Virus record (IMG/VR): IMGVR_UViG_3300020048_000039
Span: 64,314 to 128,313 of that record
From: a virus
DNA length: 64,000 nt
Direction: 5' to 3' (one strand)
Under the pieces are notes generated by a model that saw only the letters and a program-made list of their open reading frames with translations, was not told where the DNA came from and searched no databases. This document shows, one piece after another, positions 9,889-25,483 of this stretch; the first letter of the stretch is position 1; each line of letters begins with the position of its first letter. The translations under genes were made by a program, and so were the position numbers.

Positions 9889-10521
9889 ATGGAATTTAAA
9901 AAGAAAGACATTGAAGAAATAATCGACACCAATGGAGAATTAATTGGATTAGATGATATACCATCAAACGATGCTAATGCCGACACTGCTGCTCACGGAA
10001 CGACTGACCAAAATGTAAAAATTGGTCAGCAACCGTTCCGATATGATATGTTGGGTCGTTTTGGCTTTAGTATGATGCCTTTTATGGAAGGTAAAGAAGA
10101 TTCTAAGGAAAGAACTGCACTTATAAACGATTTGGCTAAACTTAGTTACGATAATTATATACGTATAATCAGGCATTACTATAAGAACCCAAATAAATTA
10201 AAGGTTGACTATAGGATGCATTCAGAACACAATTTTGAAACACAGCCTGAACATAATATGGAAACTGATTTTGATTTTGCTGATATGATAATGAAAGTTG
10301 TTCAAAAGCATTTCGAAGATGCATTTAAAGAGCCTGAACAAATTGATGAATCTAAAGTTGTTGAGGATAAGATGCTTAACAAAAAGGGTGAAGATGAAAT
10401 AACTGACAAAACAGAAGACATAGGTGTTAGAGAAAAGAAACTCGAAAAGATTGCTGGCTTGATTAACAAATTGGAGAAGAAAGATATAGATAAACTTATT
10501 AATTTATTGGAGAGGAAATGA
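9889..10521 (+). CDS. hypothetical acidic protein, possible internal head protein
   Basis: 210-aa ORF preceded by the GTATTTAT motif, with FME/IDE/VVE motifs. Confidence 0.6.
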   Translation: MEFKKKDIEEIIDTNGELIGLDDIPSNDANADTAAHGTTDQNVKIGQQPFRYDMLGRFGFSMMPFMEGKEDSKERTALINDLAKLSYDNYIRIIRHYYKNPNKLKVDYRMHSEHNFETQPEHNMETDFDFADMIMKVVQKHFEDAFKEPEQIDESKVVEDKMLNKKGEDEITDKTEDIGVREKKLEKIAGLINKLEKKDIDKLINLLERK

Positions 10522-11450
10522 GAAAATTAAATACGTGCGAATTTATTAATAAAGCATTTGCTATGTATGGTAATAAATATGATTACTCCTTAGTAAATTA
10601 TGTGAACTCAAAAACAAAGATAAAAATTATTTGCTCAAAACATGGCACATTTGAACAAACGCCAAATAGCCATTTATGTGGATGTGGGTGTCCTAAATGC
10701 GGAGATTTATTAGTTAGTGAAAAAAAATGTGAAGATACAGACCATTTTATTAGTAGGGCAATTGAAAAACATGGTCATAAATATGATTATTCGTTAGTTG
10801 ATTATATTAATGTAAAAAGTTTTATCGTAATAATTTGTTGTGAGCACGGTAAATTTTCACAGCGAGCAAATGACCATTTAAATGGAAAGGGTTGTCCTAT
10901 ATGTGGAAAAATTTTAAAGGGAATTAAAATAAGAAAGAATACTGATTATTTTATTAATGAAGCAAAAAAAATTCATGGCAAGAAATATAATTATTCGAAT
11001 GTTGACTATGTAAAAAGTAAAATAAGCGTAAGCATCATATGTTCAAAACACGGTATGTTCAATCAAAAACCGAATGACCATTTAAATGGAAAAGGCTGTC
11101 CAACATGTTGTGAGTCCAACGGAGAAAATAAAATAAGAACTTTTTTAAATGAAAATAATATTAAATATATTAAAGAGAAAAAATTCAGTAATTGTATTAA
11201 CGTTAAAGAGCTTCCTTTTGATTTTTATCTTCCAGAATACGATGTTTTAATTGAATTTGATGGAGTGCAGCATTTTAATCCCATTAATTATTTTGGTGGA
11301 ATTGATGCATTAAATAATCAAATTATTAATGATAAAATAAAAAACGATTTTGCGAGAGTAAATAATTTTCATTTACTTCGAATACGATTTGATGAAATAA
11401 ATGAAATTAATAAAATCTTAAATACATATGAACCAATATTTAAAAGATAA
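10518..11450 (+). CDS. free-standing homing-endonuclease-like protein: 3 Zn-ribbon repeats + PD-(D/E)XK (Vsr-like) domain
   Basis: Repeats F I.KA...G.KYDYS.V.Y...IIC.KHG.F.Q....HL.G.GCP.C; C-terminal LPFDFYLP....LIEFDG.QH. Confidence 0.8.
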   Translation: MRKLNTCEFINKAFAMYGNKYDYSLVNYVNSKTKIKIICSKHGTFEQTPNSHLCGCGCPKCGDLLVSEKKCEDTDHFISRAIEKHGHKYDYSLVDYINVKSFIVIICCEHGKFSQRANDHLNGKGCPICGKILKGIKIRKNTDYFINEAKKIHGKKYNYSNVDYVKSKISVSIICSKHGMFNQKPNDHLNGKGCPTCCESNGENKIRTFLNENNIKYIKEKKFSNCINVKELPFDFYLPEYDVLIEFDGVQHFNPINYFGGIDALNNQIINDKIKNDFARVNNFHLLRIRFDEINEINKILNTYEPIFKR

Positions 11451-12177
11451 AACCTATAGGATACCACCAGATGTATTAAGGGGTATTAGTGTAGCCAAAG
11501 CGTCCACTTCAAATGGAAGTGGTCTTAAAAGAGCTAATTTTCTGCTTAAAAATGGTGTTATAACCTATCAAGCAATGAAAAGACTTAAGAATTATTTTGA
11601 TTATCACGACCCACAAACTGATGATAAAAATGAATATGCTCTTGCTGGTGGTGAATTAATGAAAAGCTTCATTCAAACAACACTTAATCAAGACCGTGCA
11701 GGTATAAAAAGGACTGTAGATACAAAGCGTGAAGCTATGCCTATCATGAACGAAGCCGAAAAGAAGAAAAAAGAAAAACCAGTTAAAAATGCCTGTGCTA
11801 TTATTGTTGACAAAGACAATAAAATATTGCTATTGAAACGAGCAGATATTGGTGAAATGTGGATGCCAAATAAATGGGCATTAGTTGGTGGTGGTGTTGA
11901 GAAAGGCGAAACACCTTTACAAGCGGTTGAGAGAGAAATTAAGGAAGAAACTGGTTTAGAAATCAAGAAATTTATTAGTTCATTTAATTTACAACTAAAC
12001 AGTACTAATAGTATTGAGTATATGTTTGTTTGTAGATTTGAAGGCGACCCAACCGAAGTGAATCTAAATCAAGAGAACATAAGATATGGCTGGTTTAGTA
12101 CTGGTGAAATGGATTATTTGGATACAGTCCCACATTTATTGGAATATATTACAATTGCTTTTAAAAGTTATGAGTAA
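11428..12177 (+). CDS. unknown N-terminal domain fused to a Nudix hydrolase
   Basis: Complete Nudix box GGVEKGETPLQAVEREIKEETGL; IMNE linker before the Nudix domain. Confidence 0.85.
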   Translation: MNQYLKDKTYRIPPDVLRGISVAKASTSNGSGLKRANFLLKNGVITYQAMKRLKNYFDYHDPQTDDKNEYALAGGELMKSFIQTTLNQDRAGIKRTVDTKREAMPIMNEAEKKKKEKPVKNACAIIVDKDNKILLLKRADIGEMWMPNKWALVGGGVEKGETPLQAVEREIKEETGLEIKKFISSFNLQLNSTNSIEYMFVCRFEGDPTEVNLNQENIRYGWFSTGEMDYLDTVPHLLEYITIAFKSYE

Positions 12178-12224: not shown

Positions 12225-12464
12225 ATGAGCAGATTAGAAGATATTAGCTTACAATACAGAGAATGTAGTGTTGCTAAAAATGACTACGATAATAATGACG
12301 CATATGTTGCTGGACACCCTGACGCATTATCAACAGGTGATGCATTAGGTAAAGGTGAACAAAATGGTGAAGTAGGTAATGCTACTGACATTAAGACCAG
12401 AAGCATATTATTAACTAAAAATAAATTTAAAGGTGATAATTGTTATTACGCTGGCACTGCATAA
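12225..12464 (+). CDS. small hypothetical protein
   Basis: 79 aa with a weak internal two-fold repeat (R...KN.Y...N.Y). Confidence 0.65.
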   Translation: MSRLEDISLQYRECSVAKNDYDNNDAYVAGHPDALSTGDALGKGEQNGEVGNATDIKTRSILLTKNKFKGDNCYYAGTA

Positions 12465-12465
12465 T

Positions 12466-13371
12466 ATGTTGAATGAAACCAAGATATTGTTTAATAACAT
12501 CAAGAACTTTCGCCATCTTATAACAGAAGCGGTAAGTCAAAGTGACATGGAAAATTATATTAATAACCATGAGTTCATTTATATTTACTATACTGGTGAT
12601 GGAGAAAACAAAAGAGGTTGGAGAACAATTAGACCATATACACTTGGTACATCACCAAAAGATGGTCATTTATTATTGAGAGCATGGCAGGATAAAGGTA
12701 AAAGTGTTAGTAGAAGCCTAAATTTACGTGGTAATAGACATGATTATTGGACTGATGATTCTGACGGTAAAGTGAAACCCGGTTGGAGAATGTTTCGAGT
12801 TGATAACATCGAACAACTACTTCCAATTGGTACTAAGTTCAATTACTCCAATGGTGAAGTAATGATTCCACCTGATTATAAAGAAGGTACTGACAAAGGC
12901 ATGGCAACTGTTCTTGCGTGGGTTAGTACCGATAACGCACCTGTTGTGACTTCTGGAACAACCAGAATATCTCCCATCGCTACCAAAAGAGGTGATTGGA
13001 GTAGATTTGCTAATGGAAATGCAAACAATGTTAAAATTACAGCTAATGACGTAGAAAATTTACGTAATAAAGTTAATAGAGTTCTAAAAGAAAAAATTGG
13101 AAACTTCGATGTAGTTATTAACGACAGAAACGAATTTGAAGTCGTGCGTGCAAAGGATATTAATAATATACCAAAACAAGCAATTGTTGGTAGTTTAGCG
13201 AATTTATATGATACGCTTGTGAAATCACCAGCACCAACAGACCAATTCTATAAAACAGGCGGTCAGGAGATAAAAAATCAGTTGAAAAATAAGCTTAATC
13301 AAGCGAATACTGAAACAAATAACCAACAATCCCCAACAATTCCATTTGAAAAGAAAACTTTTTTCAAATAA
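12466..13371 (+). CDS. WYL-like domain protein
   Basis: YIYYTG...GWRTIRPYTLG...LLLRAWQ...GWRMFRVDNI matches the WYL pattern; ATG 12466 preferred over the track's GTG 12433. Confidence 0.65.
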   Translation: MLNETKILFNNIKNFRHLITEAVSQSDMENYINNHEFIYIYYTGDGENKRGWRTIRPYTLGTSPKDGHLLLRAWQDKGKSVSRSLNLRGNRHDYWTDDSDGKVKPGWRMFRVDNIEQLLPIGTKFNYSNGEVMIPPDYKEGTDKGMATVLAWVSTDNAPVVTSGTTRISPIATKRGDWSRFANGNANNVKITANDVENLRNKVNRVLKEKIGNFDVVINDRNEFEVVRAKDINNIPKQAIVGSLANLYDTLVKSPAPTDQFYKTGGQEIKNQLKNKLNQANTETNNQQSPTIPFEKKTFFK

Positions 13372-14148: not shown

Positions 14149-17100
14149 ATGGCAATTTATAAGATAATAAAACCCATCGAAGAACTCTATAACAATGCAG
14201 ATGGTAATGATGATATTCTTTCAGATATTGGAACTACTGCCGAAGTTAGAATGGGACACACAATAACTCCAGATAACACAGTAAATGAGTTTGGCGGTGA
14301 TTCATTGTATTCACACGATGATAGTATTGGTGATGACGAATTTCCTGCTTATAATAATGCAGACTCTTCACCTTCAATAGAGAACAACCTAAATGCCAAT
14401 TCTGCAATGTATAATGAAGACTTGGAATATAATCATGTTAGTGATGCAACCCAAGACACATACGTAATAGGTGAAGAATTTCTTGGCACTGATAAGCGTT
14501 TTGAAGATGAATTTGAAATCTTTAAAAATCCCAAATCAATTAAAAACCTAAGAAAAGACATTAAAGGGATTATCGATATGAAAACTGGCGATTTTTATGT
14601 TGCCAACTATAATATGATGTTACATATTGATTTAGCACGATGGTTAAATGTGAAATTAGGTTTTAATATTCCCGAAAAATGGAATGATTTGTATGATGGT
14701 ACTACATACTTAGCAGTACAGAGACGCAAGGATTCTAATATTTTTGGTTTATCAGAAGTTTATACATATGAAGATTATAATATGGATGACTATGAAATCG
14801 AAAGAATCATAAGTGCATTTGAAAAAGCAAACCAAAAAAATCCTACAATAGAATTTAGTCTTGAGGGTATTGAAAGAAAAACTAAGCCAGAACCTGTTGA
14901 TGCATTAGATGAAAGAGTATTATCATCAATGGCTGGTAGTTCCAGCGTTGAAGTTAAACAGAAATGTAGATTAGCAGGCAACGGTAACACAAGCACACCT
15001 TGTAATCAGGGTGATATTGGTAATCTCAACATTAAGCCACTAAAAGAAGCATACGTCAATCTTCCATATAATAAAACGTATTGGGGATGGGTTTCACCAG
15101 AGAATCAATTTACACAAGTTCCTGAACTAAAACATGCAGCATTCATCGAAAAAAGATATCCCGACATGTGGGACACCGATAAAATATTCGACAAAGCATT
15201 TGCAGATGGATGGGTAAGAGTAATTTACGAATATTATCCAAATAGATACAAAGGTACGTTATCACTAAATGGTGGTGATGAAGAACGTGTTTTACATGTA
15301 TTAAAAAACATATTTCTTGATAGCATTAGGTGGAGTAATACTACAATTTATTTACAATTTGAGAATCCAAATACTTCACGTGTTTTTAACACTGGTGATT
15401 CAGAGGGTAAAGCAGAATTGGCTAATTATTTAGGTGGACTTAACGAAATAAATGAAGAATCATTGGGTGTTATTGATTATGAAGACGTAGAATTGAACAA
15501 TCCGATTGAAATGTTTAAAAATCCTAAATCACTGAGGAATTTAAAACCAAGCATCAGGGGAATTATTGATGCTGAGACTGGTGATTTATATGCTGCAAAC
15601 ACATCCAACTATTTCCACAATATGTTAATTAAGTGGCTTAATCAAAATGTTGGCACACATTATACTGATAATTATAACTTAATATATAAAAGTCCTGATG
15701 AACTTATTCCAGTCCAAAGAGACCAAAACACCAACGTGTTTAAATTAGGTGAAATGTATCCTACCAATCTTGATAAGGAAATGGAGGGTAGACGTGAAAT
15801 GCTTGCTAAAATAAAAAATGGTTTAGCATTGGCAAAACAAAAGAATCCAAGTATTGAGTTTATACCTCAAACAATCGATAGTATTGAAATGCATGAACAA
15901 TTAAATGAAGAGATTGATGCCAGTGAAGCATATAGAGATGAAGATGGATTGCAAACTATTCTTGATGGAAAACGTAATGTTGGTGGCTATGTAACATATA
16001 ATAGAAAAAATGTTATTCAGATGTTGGAAGATACTGGATTGAACATTCTCCCACTCAGTGATAATCCATATGGCTTAGTAATAGTGTTTAATGATAAAGG
16101 AAGAGAAAATGCAATGAGGTTATGGAAGTTTGCAATATCTAAGGGTGGTTATTTTCAAGATAGTACACCTGATGAAGCACGCTTTATTGGAAAAATGCTC
16201 GAATATACTGATACATCAATAGAAACCTATGTTAATAGAATATACGATGAAAACAGTCAGAGAAGAAAACAATCATTAAATGAAGATTTTGATGATAATA
16301 AATATGTTGCTGTAGTTACACCCGATATGCAATTAATTAAAGGTACTACACACAATGCAATTTTTAAACAATTATTTCCCGATATTGAAGGTTATGCTGA
16401 AAAATATGACCATGCATTCGAAAATGGATATGTTAGGGTTATATGGAATGAAAATGAATATCAGGGTCAACCAATAATACACGCCAGTTTCGAAGGTAAC
16501 AAAGCAAATCTGATTGCTGCCCTTAAAAGATTTTATTATAAAGAGATTATTACGAATAGAAGTAGTGTTAATATCGATATTTTTGAGACAGGTAAAAGTT
16601 TAGGGTTCATCTTACCAGAACAAAAACAGGCATTCAGTGCATTCATGAGTGGATTGACAGAAGATATTGAAGAGGGTGTTGGCGATAAATATGTTGAAAG
16701 AAAATATCATATGCAACCAGAGTTTGACGACTTTGAACAATTATATAGAAACAAGCTCAGTACCGAAGGGCATGACGAAGTTGTGTACGATGATACTAAT
16801 AAGGGTGGTACTTTAAGGATTATTAAGAACCCAAAATCATTGAATAGTGTTGGTGCGGATGTTAGAGGTGTTATAGATAGAGAAGGAAATTTTTATACCG
16901 AACAACGAGTATCTGGAAAGGTACATGTTGCAATTCTTGGTGTGTTGGAAGATTTGGATTTAATTCCAGAAGATTGGGATTGGGGTGAACACTTACCAAC
17001 AGATTTTATCACGGTGCAAAGAAGTAAAGATGAAAATGCTATTTTACTTAGTGAGAAGACCGAAATGATGACACCACCAGAAGAAAGAGACCCTGAATAT

Positions 17101-20100
17101 TATGGAGCAGGGTATTGGGAAAGTTTTCCATCGTATGAAGAAGCATATCCAGAATTTCAGAAATTTATTGATAGAGCTAAAGCAAAGAACCCAAGCATTA
17201 ATTTCATTAATGCAAATATCGTCTATTATGAGGGTAATGGTTCTAAAAATATAAAAGAATATAATAATTTTGATAATGGTGTTGACGGTTTGGAAAATAG
17301 TAGTACCTTTGCAGCCGAAATCCCTGTAAATACCAGTACTGAAATGATGACTGAAAATAAATTAATGTCTTTAAATGATTTACCATTCAAAGCGGATGTT
17401 GAAGCAATGGGGGGTAGTATTCATGCAGTGGGAGGAAGCGTGCGTGATTCATTCTTAGGTAAAGATTCGAAGGATTTGGATGTTCTTATTACTGGTGTTC
17501 CGCTTGATGACTTAGAAAGAATCGTTTCTAAATATGGTCGTGTTGACTCAGTTGGAAAATCGTTTGGTGTACTTAAGTTCATGCCAAATGGTGTAGATTT
17601 AGATGAACCTATTGACATTGCGATTCCAAGGACAGAGAAAATGACTGCTGGTGGTGGTCATAAAGACTTTGACGTAACTTCAGACCATACGTTACCGATT
17701 GAAAGGGATTTAGAACGTAGAGACATTACCATCAATGCAATTGCAAAAGATGCTAACGGTAATATTATTGACCCGTATGGTGGACAGGAAGACCTTAAGA
17801 ATAAAATAATCCGTGCAGTTAATCCACAGGCATTTAGTGATGACCCGCTTCGTATGCTCAGGTGTGTGGGATTTGCAAGTCGTTTTGGCTTTACTATTGA
17901 GCCAACTACAATGAAAATGATTCAGGACACTGCTGATAGAATTTCAGGTATTGCTACTGAAAGATTGTTAATTGAGTTTGATAAAATAATTAAAAAAGGT
18001 AACATTAGACTTGGTGTACAATTATTGAAGGATACTGGCTTATTTAAACATATCTTTGGATTTGACATACAGCAATCAACGATTGATAGAAGTCCGTTTG
18101 AAGAAGTACGTACAATGGGTGAATTTCTATACCTGTTAATACGTTTATCACCAAATCCTGCTGAATTTTACTTGGGTAAGTTTGCAACGGAAGATGCAAA
18201 ACGTGATAAGATATACAAAGAAATTAAGGCATTGGATATTGGTTTGAGTAATCAAAACGATAATCCAATTGCGTTAAGGTCTATTGCACATAACATGTAC
18301 ACGATTGCACCAGAATCTTTAGGTAGTGAAATATTACCAGAAGCACTTGAAATAGCTGCACAGGAATTGTTATCAGGTAAATATCCAAAGACTGTTGGAG
18401 AATTAGCTGTTAATGGAAATGATTTACTTGCAGCAGGTTTGAAGGGTAAAGAGATTGGTGATGCGCAGAGAAAAATGTTATTGAAAATATATTCAGATAA
18501 ACTTCCTAATGATAAGGATTCATTGTTAGCATTATTGGGTAATAATGATTTGGATGAAGCTAATTTAAAGAAAGCAGCAGAAATGGTGCGAAAATATACC
18601 GTAGATGAAAAAAAGGAAGATTTTGATGAAGGTGTTGGTGATAAGTACGCAGAAAGAAAATTTGGTATACCTGATGCTGGTGCTGAGTTTGATACACTAT
18701 ATAGGCAAGCAAAGGCTGTTAGTGGTGAAAAACCAGTGGCATATGTTAATGGTTTTAACACCAAGACGAATGCTAAAGAGCAATCACCAATTTTCTTGAA
18801 TCCAAAATCATTAAACGGATTTGATAATGCAGTACGAGCAATTTCAGATGAAAGTGGTAATTTATATGTGGCGCAAAAGAATTATGGATTTACTCATGGT
18901 GATATATCAGTAGCATTGGGATTTTTTAGAAGTAACTATCAAATATTCGAAAGCTACGATAGATATACAACGTATCATAGAGTAGATGCAATGCCAGCGT
19001 TTGGAATTTCACCAACAAATGAACAATATTTGAAGAAAGGTAATGAAGAAATTGTTGAGAATTTATTAAATGCTGCACGTCAGAAGAATCCACAATATGA
19101 TTTTACGACAGATTACTTTGAGTATGTGAGTGGTAAATACAATGATGAAGTTGGCGTTGATGAAGGTGTTGGAGATAAGTATGCTGAAAAACGTTTTGGT
19201 ATTCCTGATGCTGGTGCTGAGTTCGAAAAGAAGTACCAACAAAATAGATTAGTGATTGACGGTAATGAACCATTTGGTTATGTTAGTGATTTTATTGATT
19301 GGAAAGGTAAAACAAGTCCTGAAAAAGTGCCTGTTTACAAAAATCCAAAATCATTAAGAGATTTTGATTATAATGTAAGGGCAATATCTGATACACAGGG
19401 TAATTTATATGTTGCACTTGTTGACGAAGCATTCAATCATGGCGAAATGGCTGCACATATTGGTTTAATGAATGGTGATGATACTATATATGAGAGAATC
19501 ACTGATTTTCTATTACTAAATAGGGTCAAAGATAAGGATGTGTTTGGATTTGCTGATAGTAGTGAAGAAGAATATAATCAAAGTAATGAAGACCGTAAGC
19601 GTGTTACAGAATTGCTTAACATAGTTAAAAGAAGTAATCCACAATTTAAATTCATCCCAAAGTATTATGAAGAAATTACAGGAGATTTAAATGTTGATGA
19701 AAGTCTTGACGAAACAATAAAAGGTGGTAAATATATCATGTATCATGGTAGTAACCATGCATTCAATAAATTCACTGATGAATTTGTTGGTGGTGAAAGC
19801 GCAAACGACCAAGAAGGTGCTGGAATTTATTTCACAACATCTAAGGAAGAAGCTAATAGATATGGCAAATACATATACAAAGTACAGTTGAAACCAAGGA
19901 AGCTAACTAATATTGCAAACAAAAGATTTGTATCGGTAAGTGATATGACCAAGCTAATTAAAATGTCACCAACATGGAAAGATGATGTCCAAAATTGGGA
20001 CGAAAATATCATAAGAGGACTTGCAATTGCAATAAAAAGCATAATGGAATATTCTGACAATGAAAAAGATTTATTCCAACAGATTGAGCATGACTTCTTT

Positions 20101-20649
20101 AGGTATCAACCGAGATTATATGTTCAAGGAATGACAAAATTGGGTTATGATGGTCAGCTAATTGATAAGGATTATGAGGGTATTGTGCATATCATTGTTT
20201 ACAACCCTGAGATTATCACAATTCTCGAAAGTAATGTTGAAAATACCGAACCAATAAATGAAGAAGAAATGAGTAATATTGCTTATAGTGCTGTTGTGCT
20301 TGATAATGTATCACATCAGAAATTAGTTAAAGTGTTTAAACCTATGATTCCAAAGGATTGGGAAATTCTTGCACATCACATGACATTAAACTTAGGTGGT
20401 ATCGACCCTAAGTTTGAACAGGATTTGGGTCGTGACATTGAATTAAGTGTTGTCGATTATGCTATGGATGATAAAGTAATGGCTGTGGGCGTTGAAGGTT
20501 ATCCAACCAACAACAAGAAAGCACATATTACTATTGCCGTGAATAGAACTGTTGGTGGTAAACCTATGATGTCAAATGATTTAAGTGATTGGAAACCAAT
20601 CGAATTTCCATTACAAATAGATGGAACAATAACTGAAATAGAAAGATGA
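14149..20649 (+). CDS. 2166-aa modular polyvalent protein/polyprotein: repeated unknown domains, CCA-adding enzyme, ART fold, 2H phosphodiesterase
   Basis: Single uninterrupted ORF; domains recognised by motif and separated by hydrophobic-x-E linkers. Confidence 0.88.
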   Translation: MAIYKIIKPIEELYNNADGNDDILSDIGTTAEVRMGHTITPDNTVNEFGGDSLYSHDDSIGDDEFPAYNNADSSPSIENNLNANSAMYNEDLEYNHVSDATQDTYVIGEEFLGTDKRFEDEFEIFKNPKSIKNLRKDIKGIIDMKTGDFYVANYNMMLHIDLARWLNVKLGFNIPEKWNDLYDGTTYLAVQRRKDSNIFGLSEVYTYEDYNMDDYEIERIISAFEKANQKNPTIEFSLEGIERKTKPEPVDALDERVLSSMAGSSSVEVKQKCRLAGNGNTSTPCNQGDIGNLNIKPLKEAYVNLPYNKTYWGWVSPENQFTQVPELKHAAFIEKRYPDMWDTDKIFDKAFADGWVRVIYEYYPNRYKGTLSLNGGDEERVLHVLKNIFLDSIRWSNTTIYLQFENPNTSRVFNTGDSEGKAELANYLGGLNEINEESLGVIDYEDVELNNPIEMFKNPKSLRNLKPSIRGIIDAETGDLYAANTSNYFHNMLIKWLNQNVGTHYTDNYNLIYKSPDELIPVQRDQNTNVFKLGEMYPTNLDKEMEGRREMLAKIKNGLALAKQKNPSIEFIPQTIDSIEMHEQLNEEIDASEAYRDEDGLQTILDGKRNVGGYVTYNRKNVIQMLEDTGLNILPLSDNPYGLVIVFNDKGRENAMRLWKFAISKGGYFQDSTPDEARFIGKMLEYTDTSIETYVNRIYDENSQRRKQSLNEDFDDNKYVAVVTPDMQLIKGTTHNAIFKQLFPDIEGYAEKYDHAFENGYVRVIWNENEYQGQPIIHASFEGNKANLIAALKRFYYKEIITNRSSVNIDIFETGKSLGFILPEQKQAFSAFMSGLTEDIEEGVGDKYVERKYHMQPEFDDFEQLYRNKLSTEGHDEVVYDDTNKGGTLRIIKNPKSLNSVGADVRGVIDREGNFYTEQRVSGKVHVAILGVLEDLDLIPEDWDWGEHLPTDFITVQRSKDENAILLSEKTEMMTPPEERDPEYYGAGYWESFPSYEEAYPEFQKFIDRAKAKNPSINFINANIVYYEGNGSKNIKEYNNFDNGVDGLENSSTFAAEIPVNTSTEMMTENKLMSLNDLPFKADVEAMGGSIHAVGGSVRDSFLGKDSKDLDVLITGVPLDDLERIVSKYGRVDSVGKSFGVLKFMPNGVDLDEPIDIAIPRTEKMTAGGGHKDFDVTSDHTLPIERDLERRDITINAIAKDANGNIIDPYGGQEDLKNKIIRAVNPQAFSDDPLRMLRCVGFASRFGFTIEPTTMKMIQDTADRISGIATERLLIEFDKIIKKGNIRLGVQLLKDTGLFKHIFGFDIQQSTIDRSPFEEVRTMGEFLYLLIRLSPNPAEFYLGKFATEDAKRDKIYKEIKALDIGLSNQNDNPIALRSIAHNMYTIAPESLGSEILPEALEIAAQELLSGKYPKTVGELAVNGNDLLAAGLKGKEIGDAQRKMLLKIYSDKLPNDKDSLLALLGNNDLDEANLKKAAEMVRKYTVDEKKEDFDEGVGDKYAERKFGIPDAGAEFDTLYRQAKAVSGEKPVAYVNGFNTKTNAKEQSPIFLNPKSLNGFDNAVRAISDESGNLYVAQKNYGFTHGDISVALGFFRSNYQIFESYDRYTTYHRVDAMPAFGISPTNEQYLKKGNEEIVENLLNAARQKNPQYDFTTDYFEYVSGKYNDEVGVDEGVGDKYAEKRFGIPDAGAEFEKKYQQNRLVIDGNEPFGYVSDFIDWKGKTSPEKVPVYKNPKSLRDFDYNVRAISDTQGNLYVALVDEAFNHGEMAAHIGLMNGDDTIYERITDFLLLNRVKDKDVFGFADSSEEEYNQSNEDRKRVTELLNIVKRSNPQFKFIPKYYEEITGDLNVDESLDETIKGGKYIMYHGSNHAFNKFTDEFVGGESANDQEGAGIYFTTSKEEANRYGKYIYKVQLKPRKLTNIANKRFVSVSDMTKLIKMSPTWKDDVQNWDENIIRGLAIAIKSIMEYSDNEKDLFQQIEHDFFRYQPRLYVQGMTKLGYDGQLIDKDYEGIVHIIVYNPEIITILESNVENTEPINEEEMSNIAYSAVVLDNVSHQKLVKVFKPMIPKDWEILAHHMTLNLGGIDPKFEQDLGRDIELSVVDYAMDDKVMAVGVEGYPTNNKKAHITIAVNRTVGGKPMMSNDLSDWKPIEFPLQIDGTITEIER
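17356..18558 (+). other. cca: class II tRNA nucleotidyltransferase (CCA-adding/PAP family) domain in the polyprotein
   Basis: AVGGSVRD..LG...KDLD; ERRDITINAIA; DPYGG..DL...IIRAV; FSDDPLRMLR...FASRFGF; ERL..EF; C-terminal LAVNGNDL...GKEIG. No HD domain. Confidence 0.88.
19714..20268 (+). other. ADP-ribosyltransferase-fold domain (polyvalent-protein type) in the polyprotein
   Basis: MYHGS...GAGIYFTTS..EA.RYG..IYKV.L...LGYDG..I...HIIVYNP. Confidence 0.7.
20269..20649 (+). other. 2H phosphodiesterase domain (tRNA-ligase CPDase-like) at the polyprotein C-terminus
   Basis: YSAVVLD, then two HxT motifs (AHHMTL at about 20371, AHITIA at 20521), then GGKPMMSN. Confidence 0.8.
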
Positions 20650-20690
20650 CAAAAATTAAAAGATTAATAGCATTTGACTTTATGTTATAA
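20646..20690 (+). pseudogene. 14-codon relic duplicating the N-terminus of the downstream HAD gene
   Basis: ATGA overlap with the polyprotein stop; encodes MTKIKRLIAFDFML* versus the downstream MTTDNKIKRLQVFDFDGT. Confidence 0.5.
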
Positions 20691-20705
20691 TTTTTCATAA
20701 TTTTG
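20673..20705 (+). promoter_or_regulatory. Bacteroidota sigma-A-type promoter
   Basis: TTTG at 20673-20676, 21-nt spacer, TAATTTTG at 20698-20705. Confidence 0.55.
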
Positions 20706-20739
20706 TTGTTTTATAAAAAAAAACTAAAAGTTTTGTGAA

Positions 20740-21657
20740 ATGACTACGGATAATAAAATAAAGAGACTCCAAGTTTTTGATTTTGATGGCACATTAGCCA
20801 ATAGCCCAATGCCAGAAGATGGAAAAAAGAAATGGGGAGAGTTTCATGGTAAACCTTTTCCACATAAAGGATGGTGGGGTAGACCAGAAAGTTTAGACTT
20901 AGGTGTGTTTGACATTAAAATGTTTCCAAGCGTGCTTAATCAGTTGAAGCGTGAAGTTTCAACGCCTGATACGTATGTGATTATTCTCACATCACGTATG
21001 GAAAAACTACGTCCACAACTCAAAGCAGTTCTGGATGCAAACGCTGTTCATGTCAACGCACTTGATATGAAGCACAATGAATTAACGAAAGGTGAAAAAA
21101 TCTTGCGTTATATCGACCATTTACCTGACTTGGAAGAAGTAAGTGTTTATGACGATAGGGAAGGTGACATTGCATCTTATCAGGCAATAAGAAACAGAAT
21201 ACCAGAAGGTATTTCTTTTAATATTTATTTGGCTGATAGTGGTAAGTTTGGATTAGTTGAAGTGGAAAATAATGATAAGCTAACACATATTATTATGGAA
21301 GAAATTATAAACTTTGCTGATAGTGGTGAAATTTATCATGGGACACATGTTGGTGCAGCCATTAGTATTCAGCGTAATGGTGGAATGAAACTCAACACCG
21401 AACCATATATTTCTTTCACAAGTAAACCAAGTGTTGCAAAGTATTATGCTGAAATGAAAGGTGGTAGGGATAGGGGGATTATTTTGAGAACACAATTAAC
21501 CAACGATTTTAAACAATCACCAAAATTTGATAAAAAGGATGGTTATGAGTGGATAACAACACGTGAAATCCCATCAAGTGAGTTAGAGGTTATGACTTCA
21601 CAAGGCTGGATTCCATTAAATAAATGGGACTTTATTGATAAAGAAATTAAGACATGA
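20740..21657 (+). CDS. HAD phosphatase (Swiss-army-knife RNA-repair-like) fused to an ART-fold domain
   Basis: VFDFDGT, IILTSR, TKGEK, VYDDREGD; after the IIMEE linker, IYHGT...YISFTSKPSVAKYYA...GIILR...YEW. Confidence 0.78.
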   Translation: MTTDNKIKRLQVFDFDGTLANSPMPEDGKKKWGEFHGKPFPHKGWWGRPESLDLGVFDIKMFPSVLNQLKREVSTPDTYVIILTSRMEKLRPQLKAVLDANAVHVNALDMKHNELTKGEKILRYIDHLPDLEEVSVYDDREGDIASYQAIRNRIPEGISFNIYLADSGKFGLVEVENNDKLTHIIMEEIINFADSGEIYHGTHVGAAISIQRNGGMKLNTEPYISFTSKPSVAKYYAEMKGGRDRGIILRTQLTNDFKQSPKFDKKDGYEWITTREIPSSELEVMTSQGWIPLNKWDFIDKEIKT

Positions 21658-22025
21658 GAAAAATTTTAATTGCAGAGGACAATGAAATGAATTACAATCT
21701 ATTTTTATTAATGTTAAAGGACATTTTGAATATTATCATACTTCATGCTAATGATGGTAACGAAGCCATTGAACTCTGTGATTTAAATCCAGATATTTCG
21801 TTGGTATTAATGGATATTAACATGCCTAATATGAATGGTGAGGCTGCTGCTGTTGCAATTAAATTATCACACCCTAATATTCCAATTATATCACAAACAG
21901 CATATTCGATTACTGGAATGGTTAGTGAAGAAAATAGGTGGTGCTTCGAAGATTTTATTTCGAAGCCGATTGATAGTTCTTATTTAAAAAAACTTGTTAA
22001 GAAATATTGTCCAGATGAAAAATAA
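21654..22025 (+). CDS. single-domain response regulator receiver (CheY-like)
   Basis: ILIAEDN, LVLMDINMPNMNG, IPIISQTAY, FISKP; all five canonical receiver residues present. Confidence 0.9.
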   Translation: MRKILIAEDNEMNYNLFLLMLKDILNIIILHANDGNEAIELCDLNPDISLVLMDINMPNMNGEAAAVAIKLSHPNIPIISQTAYSITGMVSEENRWCFEDFISKPIDSSYLKKLVKKYCPDEK

Positions 22026-22055: not shown

Positions 22056-22790
22056 GTGGGAAAGAAATCAACAAAAGAAGAGTTTATTAAAAATGCTGTG
22101 AATATACATGGCAATAAATTTGACTATTCTAAAGTTGAATATATTGGTAATAAATCAAAAGTTATTATTAGTTGTCCACAACATGGTGAATTTTTACAGA
22201 GACCTAATGACCATTTAAGTGGATATGGGTGTAAAAAATGCCAATACTTTAAGACATCGAAAGAAAATAAATTTACTAATGATGAATTTATTGGTAAGGC
22301 AAGTAAATTACATAATAATAAATTCGATTATTCTTTAGTTGTATACGATGGATATGAAAAAAAAATAAAAATTATATGTAAAAAACATGGAATTTTTGAA
22401 CAAACTCCACATAGTCATTGGAGTGGCGCAGGTTGTCCTTCATGCTCCGAATCTCGTGGCGAAAAGAAAGTTGCAGAAATTCTAACTGAAAATAATATTA
22501 AATTTGTCAGAGAATTAACTTTTAGCGATTTAAAAGATAAATCTAACTTATTTTATGATTTTTATTTACCAGAACACAAATTATTTATTGAATATCATGG
22601 AATACAGCATTGTCGAAGCGTTGATTTTTTTGGTGGAAAGAAAGGATTGGTTGAGACAAGAAAACGTGACATAATCAAATATAAATATGCGATAAATAAC
22701 GGTTATAAGATAATCTGGATATTTAATATTCCACCAAATAATTTAAATGAAATATTAACAAAGAAATTGAAAGAAATATCAATAATATGA
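22056..22790 (+). CDS. Zn-ribbon repeat + PD-(D/E)XK homing-endonuclease-like protein (2 repeats)
   Basis: Paralogous to 10518-11450; CPQHG...HLSGYGC..C; FYDFYLPEH..FIEYHG.QH. Confidence 0.78.
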   Translation: MGKKSTKEEFIKNAVNIHGNKFDYSKVEYIGNKSKVIISCPQHGEFLQRPNDHLSGYGCKKCQYFKTSKENKFTNDEFIGKASKLHNNKFDYSLVVYDGYEKKIKIICKKHGIFEQTPHSHWSGAGCPSCSESRGEKKVAEILTENNIKFVRELTFSDLKDKSNLFYDFYLPEHKLFIEYHGIQHCRSVDFFGGKKGLVETRKRDIIKYKYAINNGYKIIWIFNIPPNNLNEILTKKLKEISII

Positions 22791-24100: not shown

Positions 24101-25483
24101 ATGGACGGAAAAATTAGGATTTTATATCATAATCTTGATGGAGCAGGTGTTAATTATTTTAGAACACTAACACCAGCAATGGAACTCGAAAGAAATCATT
24201 CAGATGAATTTTACGTGGAGATTAACCCCACATTGGATTTTAACGACCCAACAATCGTTGATTACTTGAAATCATTTCACATTATACATTATCATCGTCA
24301 ATTTTTAAATGACAGTAAGCAGATGTTAAACTTAGCAAATGAGTTAAGGAAATCAGGAACTGTTCTGATAGTGGATATTGATGACTACTGGCAATTGCAT
24401 AAGAAACATCCATATTATCATATGAGTCTCGAAAATAACCTTGCACAGCCAATTATCGAAAATCTTAAAATTGCTGATTATGTTACGACAACAACCGATG
24501 TTTTTGCAGAAGAAATTCGTAAAATAACTGGTAGAGAGAATGTTGAGGTACTTTACAACTCAATTGACCCTACATGGATGAAACAATTCCAGAATAATTG
24601 GACTGCTGACACTGATGGTCGTGTTAGAATTACTTATATGGCTGGTTCTTCCCACATGGGTGACGTTGAGCAACTTGAAGGCGTAATGAATGTATTGTCA
24701 TCAGACCCTGACCTTAAAGATAAGTTCAAAGTCATTATTGCTGGTTGGGACACAGAGGGTTCAACGACTGACATTACGTTTAATCAGGAGTTTGGAACTG
24801 AGCTACAGAAAAAGGGTTTGTGGACTAATGAAATCGTGAAAGCAATTAATAATTCAAAGGGAGATATTGATAAGATACTACATTTGCCTGCATCAATAAA
24901 AGAAAAATACAGAGGTAAAATATTTGACCAAAAGCAAAGAGATATTGCTTCGGAAGAAAGTGTTTATCTTGTGTATGAAAACATATTAACAGATAATCAT
25001 CGTATGATTAAAAATCCCGATTATTTGGAATGGCTTGGCAATTATGAAAGAAATGTAAACTATGAAGATGAAGGAAACTTTGCCAGACGTTGGACACAAA
25101 AAGCCAACACGTATGCACAAGTATTGGATGAAACCGATATTGTCATTGCACCACTTGCAAAAAATTCATTCAACTCAATGAAATCAAATTTGAAACAGGT
25201 TGAGTGTTGGACACGTAAACTTCCAATTGTTTGTTCAGATGTCGTGCCTTATAATGTACATGGGAAGCACATGGAAAATTGTGTGTTAATTCCATCAGAA
25301 AAGAACGCATACAAATACTGGCAAAAGTATTTAAAGAAACTAATATTAGATGCTGATTTAAGAAAAAGACTCGGTGAACAGCTATATGAAGACTTTAAAG
25401 AAGAGTATAACTTAGCATACGTAACGGCAAAACGTGCTGAATTTTATAAAGCATGCGTTGCCAAAACATTAGAACTCGCATAA
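24101..25483 (+). CDS. GT-B fold glycosyltransferase (GT4-like) with a large insertion
   Basis: GVNYFRTLTP, IVDIDDYW, VLYNSID, ITYMAGSSH..D, DIVIAPLAKNSFNSMKSNLK.VE, LKKLILDADLRKRLGEQ. Confidence 0.8.
   Translation: MDGKIRILYHNLDGAGVNYFRTLTPAMELERNHSDEFYVEINPTLDFNDPTIVDYLKSFHIIHYHRQFLNDSKQMLNLANELRKSGTVLIVDIDDYWQLHKKHPYYHMSLENNLAQPIIENLKIADYVTTTTDVFAEEIRKITGRENVEVLYNSIDPTWMKQFQNNWTADTDGRVRITYMAGSSHMGDVEQLEGVMNVLSSDPDLKDKFKVIIAGWDTEGSTTDITFNQEFGTELQKKGLWTNEIVKAINNSKGDIDKILHLPASIKEKYRGKIFDQKQRDIASEESVYLVYENILTDNHRMIKNPDYLEWLGNYERNVNYEDEGNFARRWTQKANTYAQVLDETDIVIAPLAKNSFNSMKSNLKQVECWTRKLPIVCSDVVPYNVHGKHMENCVLIPSEKNAYKYWQKYLKKLILDADLRKRLGEQLYEDFKEEYNLAYVTAKRAEFYKACVAKTLELA

Follow-up and report, generated by a model that had tools for sequence, protein, structure and literature searches.

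A predicted tRNA 3'-end healing and CCA-adding module partly embedded in a polyvalent protein of an IMG/VR phage

The 64,000-nucleotide stretch of virus DNA analyzed in the current study (positions 64,314 to 128,313 of IMG/VR record IMGVR_UViG_3300020048_000039; the whole stretch is called the window below) encodes three neighbouring enzymatic domains, namely a class II nucleotidyltransferase (NTase), a 2H phosphoesterase and a HAD phosphatase. On balance, these three domains probably form one functional module, which makes tRNAs with a CCA-3'OH terminus from incomplete or blocked 3' ends. A tRNA 3'-end heal-and-rebuild pathway that works without ligase is the best-supported reading of the predicted domain functions. 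The window makes up the second half of a virus contig of 128 kb. The GC content amounts to about 32%, and almost every gene is on the plus strand. CheckV rated the contig as 39% complete, corresponding to a full phage genome of about 330 kb. An initial annotation, made from the letters of the window, had recognized the three domains, with NTase and 2H in one chain and the HAD in the following gene. The domains were confirmed at their positions by Pfam, PHROG and NCBIfam matches, folds and motifs, with scores far beyond chance, and the gene arrangement was found as described. The features concerned are the following (aa, amino acids; ORF, open reading frame).

14149-20649, plus strand: P0001, 2166 aa, a single uninterrupted ORF carrying both NTase and 2H (ORF, domain matches, internal repeats).
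17371-18603, plus strand: class II tRNA NTase of the CCA-adding type, head to tail, aa 1075-1485 of P0001 (Pfam, PHROG, NCBIfam, solved relatives, motifs).
20266-20646, plus strand: minimal 127-aa 2H phosphoesterase of the CNPase/Trl1-CPD type at the extreme C-terminus of P0001, aa 2040-2166 (Pfam, fold, motifs).
20740-21657, plus strand: P0002, 305 aa, two domains (Pfam, homologues, fold).
20749-21282, plus strand: HAD_SAK DxDxT phosphatase domain of P0002, aa 4-181 (motifs, Pfam, fold).

Domain identities, folds, intact catalytic motifs, linkage with fusions, and phage tRNA genes lacking CCA were all observed directly. The initial annotation had made co-occurrence of the three domains in related phages a test of its proposal, and order and strand proved to be kept in 47 of 50 distinct loci, with several permutations of fusion. 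For this survey a HAD alignment was searched against IMG/VR, giving 80 loci that fell into 61 clusters at 95% identity, and the count was taken over the 50 clusters that have 5 kb or more of DNA upstream. In the 47 linked clusters, NTase and 2H both lie upstream of the HAD on the same strand, and the order is almost always NTase, a variable insert, 2H and HAD. The three clusters without linkage hold the most distant HAD homologues (at most 42% identity). The NTase is 48–68% identical across nearly all related loci. It shares one ORF with the 2H domain in 22 of the 47 clusters, and the NTase-2H unit is a separate gene in many relatives. All three domains are fused in 3 clusters (L042, L077 and L079) and in the short locus L071, the fused order being 2H-CCA-HAD in L071, L077 and L079.

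Linkage was also examined from the side of the 2H domain. An exhaustive HMMER search of public data gave 1109 representative clusters, of which the best 150 were inspected; 64 of these are longer than 250 aa, and 40 of the 64 carry an NTase in the same chain, five of them with a HAD as well. Compact 2H-CCA-HAD proteins occur (P0181, 698 aa; P0251, 711 aa), one 2H-HAD protein was also seen, and the fusion orders found across relatives are CCA-2H, 2H-CCA-HAD, 2H-HAD and CCA-HAD. The corresponding locus scan was run with an 11-sequence alignment, the 52-sequence alignment being too diverse. At 2H loci of at least 50% identity, NTase and HAD are adjacent wherever the fetched DNA suffices on both sides, except at L130, where no NTase was detected within 8 kb upstream of the 2H domain. 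Homologues below 50% identity sometimes stand alone.

The NTase domain was matched by Pfam PolyA_pol (1.6e-20) and PolyA_pol_RNAbd (4.1e-15), by tRNA_NucTran2_2 under its cut-off (0.0016), and by the PHROG for tRNA nucleotidyltransferase (6e-60). All five class II motifs (A–E) are present at aa 1095–1279 (GGSVRD/DLD, RRDITINA, DPYGGQEDL, DDPLRMLR and ERLLIEFDK; GGSVRD lies at 17431-17448, DLD at 17473-17481, RRD at 17716-17724, DDPLR at 17839-17853 and ERLLIEFDK at 17959-17985). The flexible loop joining motifs A and B is intact, and the neck motif is presumably of the CCA type, ERxxxExxK. The Bacillus-type CCA enzyme of NCBIfam (NF009814; 2.3e-50, positions 23–392 of 396) is the sole model aligned over the full length, body and tail included, whereas the E. 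coli-type Cca model (NF008137; 8.5e-42, head positions 3–207 of 409) and the PcnB model cover the head only. Among solved structures, the nearest are Firmicute CCA-adding enzymes (6ibp, 8e-30; 1miv, 2e-28), and A-adding enzymes and poly(A) polymerases match at about 1e-20 to 1e-18. From these comparisons, the domain appears to be a divergent CCA-type enzyme of a phage lineage and no orthologue of a named bacterial enzyme.

Both H-x-T motifs of the 2H domain, HMT at 20377-20385 (H2077-M-T2079) and HIT at 20524-20532 (H2126-I-T2128), show no variation among 11 homologues, and their conservation across 52 is at least 90%. When scanned alone, the domain gave a borderline match to Pfam tRNA_lig_CPD (PF08302; 6.1e-5, 23.1 bits, cut-off 23), and the same family was matched by 46 of the 52 stand-alone homologues (best 6e-11). 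The AlphaFold model (predicted local distance difference test score 97.4) was compared with 48,161 representative PDB chains, and its nearest fold is the CNPase catalytic domain 2xmi (Z 13.3, root-mean-square deviation [rmsd] 2.2 Å, 125 of 127 residues). All top Foldseek matches are CNPase or RICH, and the fungal Trl1 kinase-CPD structure 6u05 is also listed. The domain is thus predicted, from its modelled fold and motifs, to be a 2',3'-cyclic phosphodiesterase.

On an unrelated phage contig (L146:7434-8369), a member of this minimal 2H family is joined in one chain to an AAA_33 P-loop kinase with no ligase domain, an arrangement that resembles the kinase-CPD healing unit of the fungal tRNA ligase Trl1.

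The HAD domain carries DFDGT at 20779-20793, LTSR at 20986-20997, K117, and YDD at 21148-21156. Its motifs I–IV (D14-F-D16-G-T18, T84/S85, K117 and D138-D139) show little or no variation among 57 sequences. The Pfam HAD_SAK_1 score (1.3e-5) was 25.6 bits, exactly the cut-off of 25.6; PF10307 is precomputed on many HAD homologues, and that of L080 scores 2.8e-10. The top folds are Pnkp1 of the Pnkp/Rnl/Hen1 repair complex (4xrp, Z 13.0) and T4 Pnkp (5uj0, Z 12.9, rmsd 2.4 Å, 127 residues), with other HAD enzymes within about 1 Z. Sequence-profile searches of the PDB with the profiles of the 2H domain, the HAD domain and the C-terminal domain of P0002 found nothing meaningful, and fold comparison alone was informative.

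Five complete genomes of relatives (327–365 kb) contain 36–65 tRNA genes each. Two of them were examined over 58 kb of tRNA arrays, where CCA is encoded in only about 8 of 109 tRNA genes, i.e. about 93% lack it, and the single tRNA gene on the contig studied here (tRNA-Met) also has no encoded CCA. A single class II NTase, namely that of the trio, is encoded by each complete relative. Given these counts, the module may serve to mature the phage's own tRNAs with no less likelihood than to repair host-inflicted damage. The initial annotation had taken the lack of tRNA genes in the window as favouring end repair, an argument that is wrong in the light of the contig and its relatives. Its proposal of a sequential tRNA 3'-end pathway acting after host damage needs to be divided: the pathway is supported by linkage, by the CNPase/Trl1-CPD-like 2H and by the Pnkp-like HAD, and host damage becomes just one of two likely uses.

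The tRNA arrays have spacers of about 5 nucleotides and include undetermined tRNAs as well as a predicted tRNA with a CUA anticodon ('tRNA-Pyl'), which hints at possible stop-codon suppression. Genes for tmRNA lie inside the arrays (L083:8329-8694 in genome G001, 87 bits; L084:9756-10121 in genome G004, 105 bits). Weak matches to archaeal-type RNase P RNA were seen beside the arrays (L082:533-742 in G001 and L085:7608-7806 in G004; about 26–27 bits, E about 1e-3, far under the gathering score), which may represent a minimal RNase P RNA encoded by the phage or may be due to chance.

Among the five complete relatives, RNA ligases are absent from G001, RtcB is the only one in another, and Rnl1 together with Rnl2 occur in three; where present, they are always distant from the trio. 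Because ligases are missing from one genome, variable in the others and never adjacent, the module appears to be independent of ligation. Rnl1, Rnl2 and RtcB were not found on the 128-kb contig either, a result that is uninformative by itself as the contig is only 39% of the genome.

We infer the substrates, the regiochemistry, the order of the steps and the origin of the damaged ends in the following scheme. The CNPase/Trl1-CPD-type 2H domain would open a 2',3'-cyclic phosphate, leaving a 2'-phosphate and a free 3'-OH; passages of a study on Trl1-CPD give 3'-OH/2'-PO4 as its product ends (PMC6379707). The Pnkp-like DxDxT HAD phosphatase would then strip the leftover 2'- or 3'-phosphate. The HAD domain of T4 Pnkp takes 3'-, 2'- and cyclic phosphates off RNA (PMC3592404). 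In the last step, the class II NTase would supply the missing C, C and A. The phage's own tRNAs without CCA would be assured clients, and its tmRNA probably another. As two healing enzymes are present, phosphorylated ends are also to be expected; metal-independent RNases leave such ends, and the module therefore probably also mends tRNA tails clipped by nucleases of the host or of competitors. Host damage may be the source of the phosphorylated ends.

The concept of joining end healing to CCA addition has a precedent. In 2004, Yakunin et al. reportedly found cyclic phosphodiesterase, 2'-nucleotidase and phosphatase activities in the HD domain of E. coli Cca. The NCBIfam name for this type of enzyme (NF008137) is 'multifunctional CCA addition/repair protein'. 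As in E. coli Cca, to which the NTase head is homologous, a class II CCA head is here united with cyclic phosphodiesterase and phosphatase functions, both predicted in the phage, that are thought to clear blocked 3' ends before CCA is added. In contrast to the E. coli enzyme, the phage trio has no HD domain (none was found in P0001 by Pfam with E up to 0.1) and relies for healing on two unrelated folds (CNPase-type 2H and DxDxT HAD), which vary in order and are either fused or neighbours; the body and tail of its NTase are also of the Bacillus type. By analogy, the trio may be regarded as a non-homologous counterpart of E. coli Cca healing, in which the concept is known and the fold solution differs.

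Other relevant systems are the fungal Trl1 CPD domain, vertebrate CNPase, and the phosphatases of T4 and bacterial Pnkp. Their likeness to the phage enzymes consists in the CNPase fold and tRNA_lig_CPD match of the 2H domain, which is stripped down to 127 aa compared with the CNPase domain of about 210 aa, and in the DxDxT motif of the HAD and its top-ranked, though closely followed, fold matches to Pnkp. Unlike those systems, which feed an RNA ligase, the trio has no linked kinase or ligase, and the healed end would pass to the CCA-adding enzyme. In the sections available of an inventory of RNA repair in jumbo phages, 2H domains, stand-alone SAK-type HADs and CCA enzymes appear as separate items, mainly tied to ligases, and neither a fixed NTase-2H-HAD order nor the fusions are described in those sections (Iyer, Anantharaman, Krishnan, Burroughs, Aravind 2021, PMC7824862). 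No account of a linked trio came up in a full-text literature search that combined the three terms.

Several observations weigh against the heal-and-rebuild pathway. The Pfam scores of the 2H and HAD domains lie right at the family thresholds. The best equivalog score of the NTase was 171.8 bits (NF009814) against a cut-off of 290, and the cut-offs of all CCA equivalogs were missed, so that CCA-, CC- or A-adding specificity is not readable from its sequence. Normal 3' processing of bacterial tRNAs is expected to yield 3'-OH ends, for which healing is unnecessary, and the same is expected of cleavage by the RuvC-type nuclease Cas12a3. No self-cleaving ribozyme family reached E 0.01 in the 58 kb of tRNA arrays, and the results hence give no reason for phage tRNA maturation itself to make cyclic-phosphate ends, although novel ribozymes may be present in the arrays. 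In addition, the 2H domains of polyvalent proteins, which were never seen with RNA ligases, have for that reason been proposed to be RNases or degraders of 2'-5' signals (Iyer, Burroughs, Anand, de Souza, Aravind 2017, PMC5512222). Finally, blastn and tblastn searches of GenBank phages found no cultured relatives. The only matches there came from coliphages (generic CCA head), uncultured 600-kb phages (HAD) and Agrobacterium phage Atu_ph07 (2H domain, 30% identity).

Three other explanations were weighed against the proposed module. The NTase might serve housekeeping only, adding CCA to phage tRNAs and tmRNA, with the 2H and HAD domains having separate jobs, e.g. in the metabolism of nucleotides or ADP-ribose derivatives together with the ADP-ribosyltransferase (ART), NUDIX and receiver (Rec) domains encoded nearby. 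The large sets of tRNA genes, mostly without CCA, and the single NTase per genome agree with this, as does the presence of NUDIX, ART-fold and Rec in the same block, domains which passages of the 2021 inventory (PMC7824862) tie to NAD+/ADP-ribose processing. However, neighbourhood alone would not lead one to expect repeated fusions in differing orders; the 2H domain is of the CPD/CNPase type that acts on RNA ends, the top-ranked folds for the HAD are, by a narrow margin, polynucleotide phosphatases, and the ART domain, the Rec domain and the ART-like tail of the HAD gene occur in a minority of loci whereas the trio is nearly universal. Separate jobs for the 2H and HAD domains are therefore considered unlikely. 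It is far less likely still that the NTase is a poly(A) polymerase or other RNA-tailing enzyme, marking host RNAs for decay or modifying RNAs other than tRNA, with 2H and HAD preparing the 3' ends. The head does match PcnB (TIGR01942, 1.3e-28), solved poly(A) polymerases are matched at about 1e-18, and every score of the domain falls under the equivalog cut-offs, but CCA enzymes are consistently the best matches, the full length is spanned by the Bacillus-type CCA model and just the head by PcnB, the neck motif is presumably of the CCA type, and the tRNAs encoded by these phages themselves require CCA addition. Tailing is the least probable of the three.

The 2H domain could also act against signalling, degrading cyclic nucleotide or oligonucleotide messengers like T4 Acb1 or viral 2'-5' phosphodiesterases, with the HAD dephosphorylating the products and the NTase unrelated. 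Such a role resembles the one put forward for 2H domains of polyvalent proteins in 2017 (PMC5512222), and the 2H fold is shared with Acb1 and other viral phosphodiesterases (Z 5–7). The closest likeness is nevertheless to CNPase: all remaining 2H enzymes, including Acb1, LigT-like proteins and Usb1, reached Z 7.4 at most against the model, and the Acb1 structure 7t27 gave Z 7.3 with an rmsd of 3.9 Å. The Acb1 profile PF23474 matched neither this domain nor its 52 homologues, and the Pfam LigT family matched one of the 52 and not the domain itself. As a positive control, PF23474 matched at 1.5e-7 an extra, LigT/Acb1-like 2H domain in a relative (L002, 81% identical), which sits directly after the orthologue of the 2H domain studied here. 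Since L002 carries both kinds side by side, the two appear to be distinct and non-redundant. Together with the tight fusion of the 2H domain to the NTase, these results make messenger degradation, which the initial annotation had offered as its alternative, very improbable.

The initial annotation had also treated the three domains as a free-standing kit. In this phage, NTase and 2H belong to a polyvalent protein, the remaining modules of which come and go among relatives, and the parts that had not been noticed are five copies of one repeat, named NPKS, two copies of a further repeat, an ART-PolyVal domain, an ART-fold tail on the HAD gene and an overlapping receiver gene. By Pfam, PHROGs and self-comparison, the 12 modules of P0001 are, in order, an acidic N-terminus, R1, X1, R2, a middle region, X2, R3, the CCA NTase, R4, R5, ART-PolyVal and 2H. 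Those outside the trio with their own coordinates are listed here.

14149-14466, plus strand: acidic N-terminal region (tblastn 45-82% identity; 41 of the 47 distinct loci).
14467-14919, plus strand: NPKS repeat R1 (self-comparison and alignment, as for R2–R5).
15448-15924, plus strand: NPKS repeat R2.
16660-17178, plus strand: NPKS repeat R3, with the EGVGDKY linker before the repeat at 16672-16692.
18625-19158, plus strand: NPKS repeat R4, with the linker at 18628-18648.
19159-19722, plus strand: NPKS repeat R5, with the linker at 19162-19182.
19723-20253, plus strand: ART-PolyVal ADP-ribosyltransferase domain, aa 1859-2035 (Pfam PF18760, 2.5e-9; phrog_25279, 6e-22).

The acidic region is kept upstream of the NTase in most relatives, in some of them as an ORF of its own. 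The NPKS module comprises about 170 aa, belongs to no recognised family and has invariant N-P-K-S, D, G, Y, H, R and N-P residues; it was found in 16 of the 47 distinct loci and is thus optional. The X module (X1 and X2) is a second unrecognised repeat. ESM Atlas look-ups with an NPKS repeat (R5) and the X module gave weak leads (scores below 0.9), the nearest named clusters for NPKS being ART-like. A near-identical linker, (D/E)EGVGDKY(A/V)E(R/K)(K/R)(F/Y), stands ahead of R3, R4 and R5, and could be a piece of the NPKS module or a processing site. The ART-PolyVal domain, a signature of polyvalent proteins, scored 38.5 bits (cut-off 31.2) and has the motifs YHGS (19741-19752) and GIYFT (19822-19836); it is likewise optional, occurring in 2 of the 47 distinct loci.

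P0001 resembles the polyvalent proteins of the 2017 study (PMC5512222) in its great size, in combining ART-PolyVal with 2H, and in having modules that are shuffled, duplicated, split or lost. On these sequence features it would fall under the polyvalent proteins as Iyer et al. 2017 defined them, with many unrelated enzymatic domains and with modules gained, lost, split and reordered in relatives. It differs from the proteins described there in that its 2H domain is evolutionarily bound to an NTase and a HAD; the term 'CCA' has 0 occurrences in that paper. Packaging into the virion and delivery along with the DNA are further traits ascribed to polyvalent proteins; the P0001 gene is located between replication genes and a baseplate gene, a position that is not direct evidence of packaging. 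An ORF boundary lies about 50 nucleotides ahead of the NTase domain in at least 10 relatives, indicating that the fusion of the NTase to the upstream modules is lineage-specific here. The NPKS and ART modules are lineage-specific additions outside the conserved core.

The polyprotein of L002 (L002:685-9739), of about 3000 aa, runs in two frames that switch just ahead of the NTase domain, a change that could be genuine or an assembly error. Compared with P0001, it has as extras a GNAT acetyltransferase, the LigT/Acb1-like 2H domain and one more C-terminal domain.

Two further features adjoin the HAD domain.

21319-21594, plus strand: ART-fold C-terminal domain of P0002, aa 194-285 (YHGT, SFTS and EW motifs; fold).
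21654-22025, plus strand: gene of a stand-alone receiver (Rec) domain (Pfam Response_reg, 1.8e-16).

In the C-terminal domain of P0002 (about 120 aa), the YHGT, SFTS and EW motifs are invariant in 11 homologues. Its fold matches the NAD-binding lobe of the RNA 2'-phosphotransferase KptA (9ld3 residues 92-180; Z 9.6, rmsd 2.3 Å, 82 aa), and its profile matches are weak (PTS_2-RNA, E 0.1; ART-PolyVal in 5 of the 11 homologues, at 0.017 or weaker). Tpt1/KptA is a two-lobe enzyme, the N-terminal RNA lobe of which bears the Arg-His-Arg of the catalytic tetrad. Identity of the domain as Tpt1/KptA was rejected, since the RNA lobe is absent and the NAD-binding C-lobe alone was matched. Canonical Tpt1/KptA was not found in the five complete relatives. 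BLASTP detected no similarity between this domain and the ART-PolyVal domain of P0001, their likeness being confined to motif and fold. A C-terminal ART-fold domain of this type is present in about 8 of the 47 distinct loci.

The start codon of the Rec gene overlaps the stop codon of P0002 (ATGA). Its product is CheY-like and has the acidic pair, D53, T81 and K104 all present. A homologue at the equivalent position was seen in 3 loci only (L036, L039 and L066). Passages of the 2021 study propose that stand-alone 'cRec' domains of phages process cyclic phosphates and ADP-ribose derivatives beside RNA-repair genes (Iyer et al. 2021, PMC7824862). The Rec gene is a candidate 'cRec' and a possible accessory of the module, although its membership is uncertain.

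The remaining genes of the neighbourhood that bear on the region are given below.

10518-11450, plus strand: HNH homing-endonuclease gene (phrog_559, 3e-76).
11428-12177, plus strand: NUDIX hydrolase gene just upstream of the P0001 gene (2.4e-19).
12433-13371, plus strand: gene of a 312-aa protein with a sub-threshold WYL match (0.0028), just upstream of the P0001 gene.
22056-22790, plus strand: HNH homing-endonuclease gene (phrog_559, 1.8e-57).
24101-25483, plus strand: gene of a 460-aa protein with weak glycosyltransferase matches (about 80% identity across 69 related loci).

The NUDIX and WYL-like genes are syntenic with the trio in 36–40 related loci, and may provide an NAD+/ADP-ribose or nucleotide-sensing context. 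The two HNH genes are paralogues, one on each side of the conserved block, and look like mobile insertions within a region that is otherwise syntenic. The gene of the 460-aa protein exceeds all others in the neighbourhood in conservation by a wide margin, which suggests that the protein is probably essential and perhaps structural.

Immunity that disables tRNA is a fast-growing field of bacterial research. Known phage answers to it are spare tRNAs and the repair of anticodons by T4 Pnkp and ligase. Cas12a3 immunity, reported in 2026, cuts the CCA tails of tRNAs, one enzyme studied being from a Bacteroidetes bacterium (PMC12851939), and cleavage of the tRNA acceptor stem by the HEPN nuclease of Cas13 is described in a preprint. 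A wider reading would combine a dedicated countermeasure to immunity against tRNA 3' tails, an injected polyvalent protein processed by a protease, and an NAD+-dependent side branch. The immunity in question would comprise tail cutting by Cas12a3, acceptor-end cuts by HEPN/Cas13 that leave cyclic phosphates, and pyrophosphorylation of CCA ends; the side branch would consist of the KptA-like ART on the HAD protein and the coupled Rec, acting on 2'-phosphates or on ADP-ribose cyclic phosphate. Taken jointly, these proposals are doubtful.

If the heal-and-rebuild pathway is true, a conserved system that works without ligase would be a third phage answer to such immunity, directed at the acceptor end of the tRNA. 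The result is further relevant to the way in which giant phages carrying 36–65 tRNA genes, mostly CCA-less, obtain functional tRNAs, and it offers a concrete function, open to testing, for a class of polyvalent-protein 2H domains earlier ascribed to RNA cleavage or signal degradation. The family is large, as the 2H survey indicates, and its natural 2H-CCA-HAD fusions of about 700 aa are handy for biochemistry.

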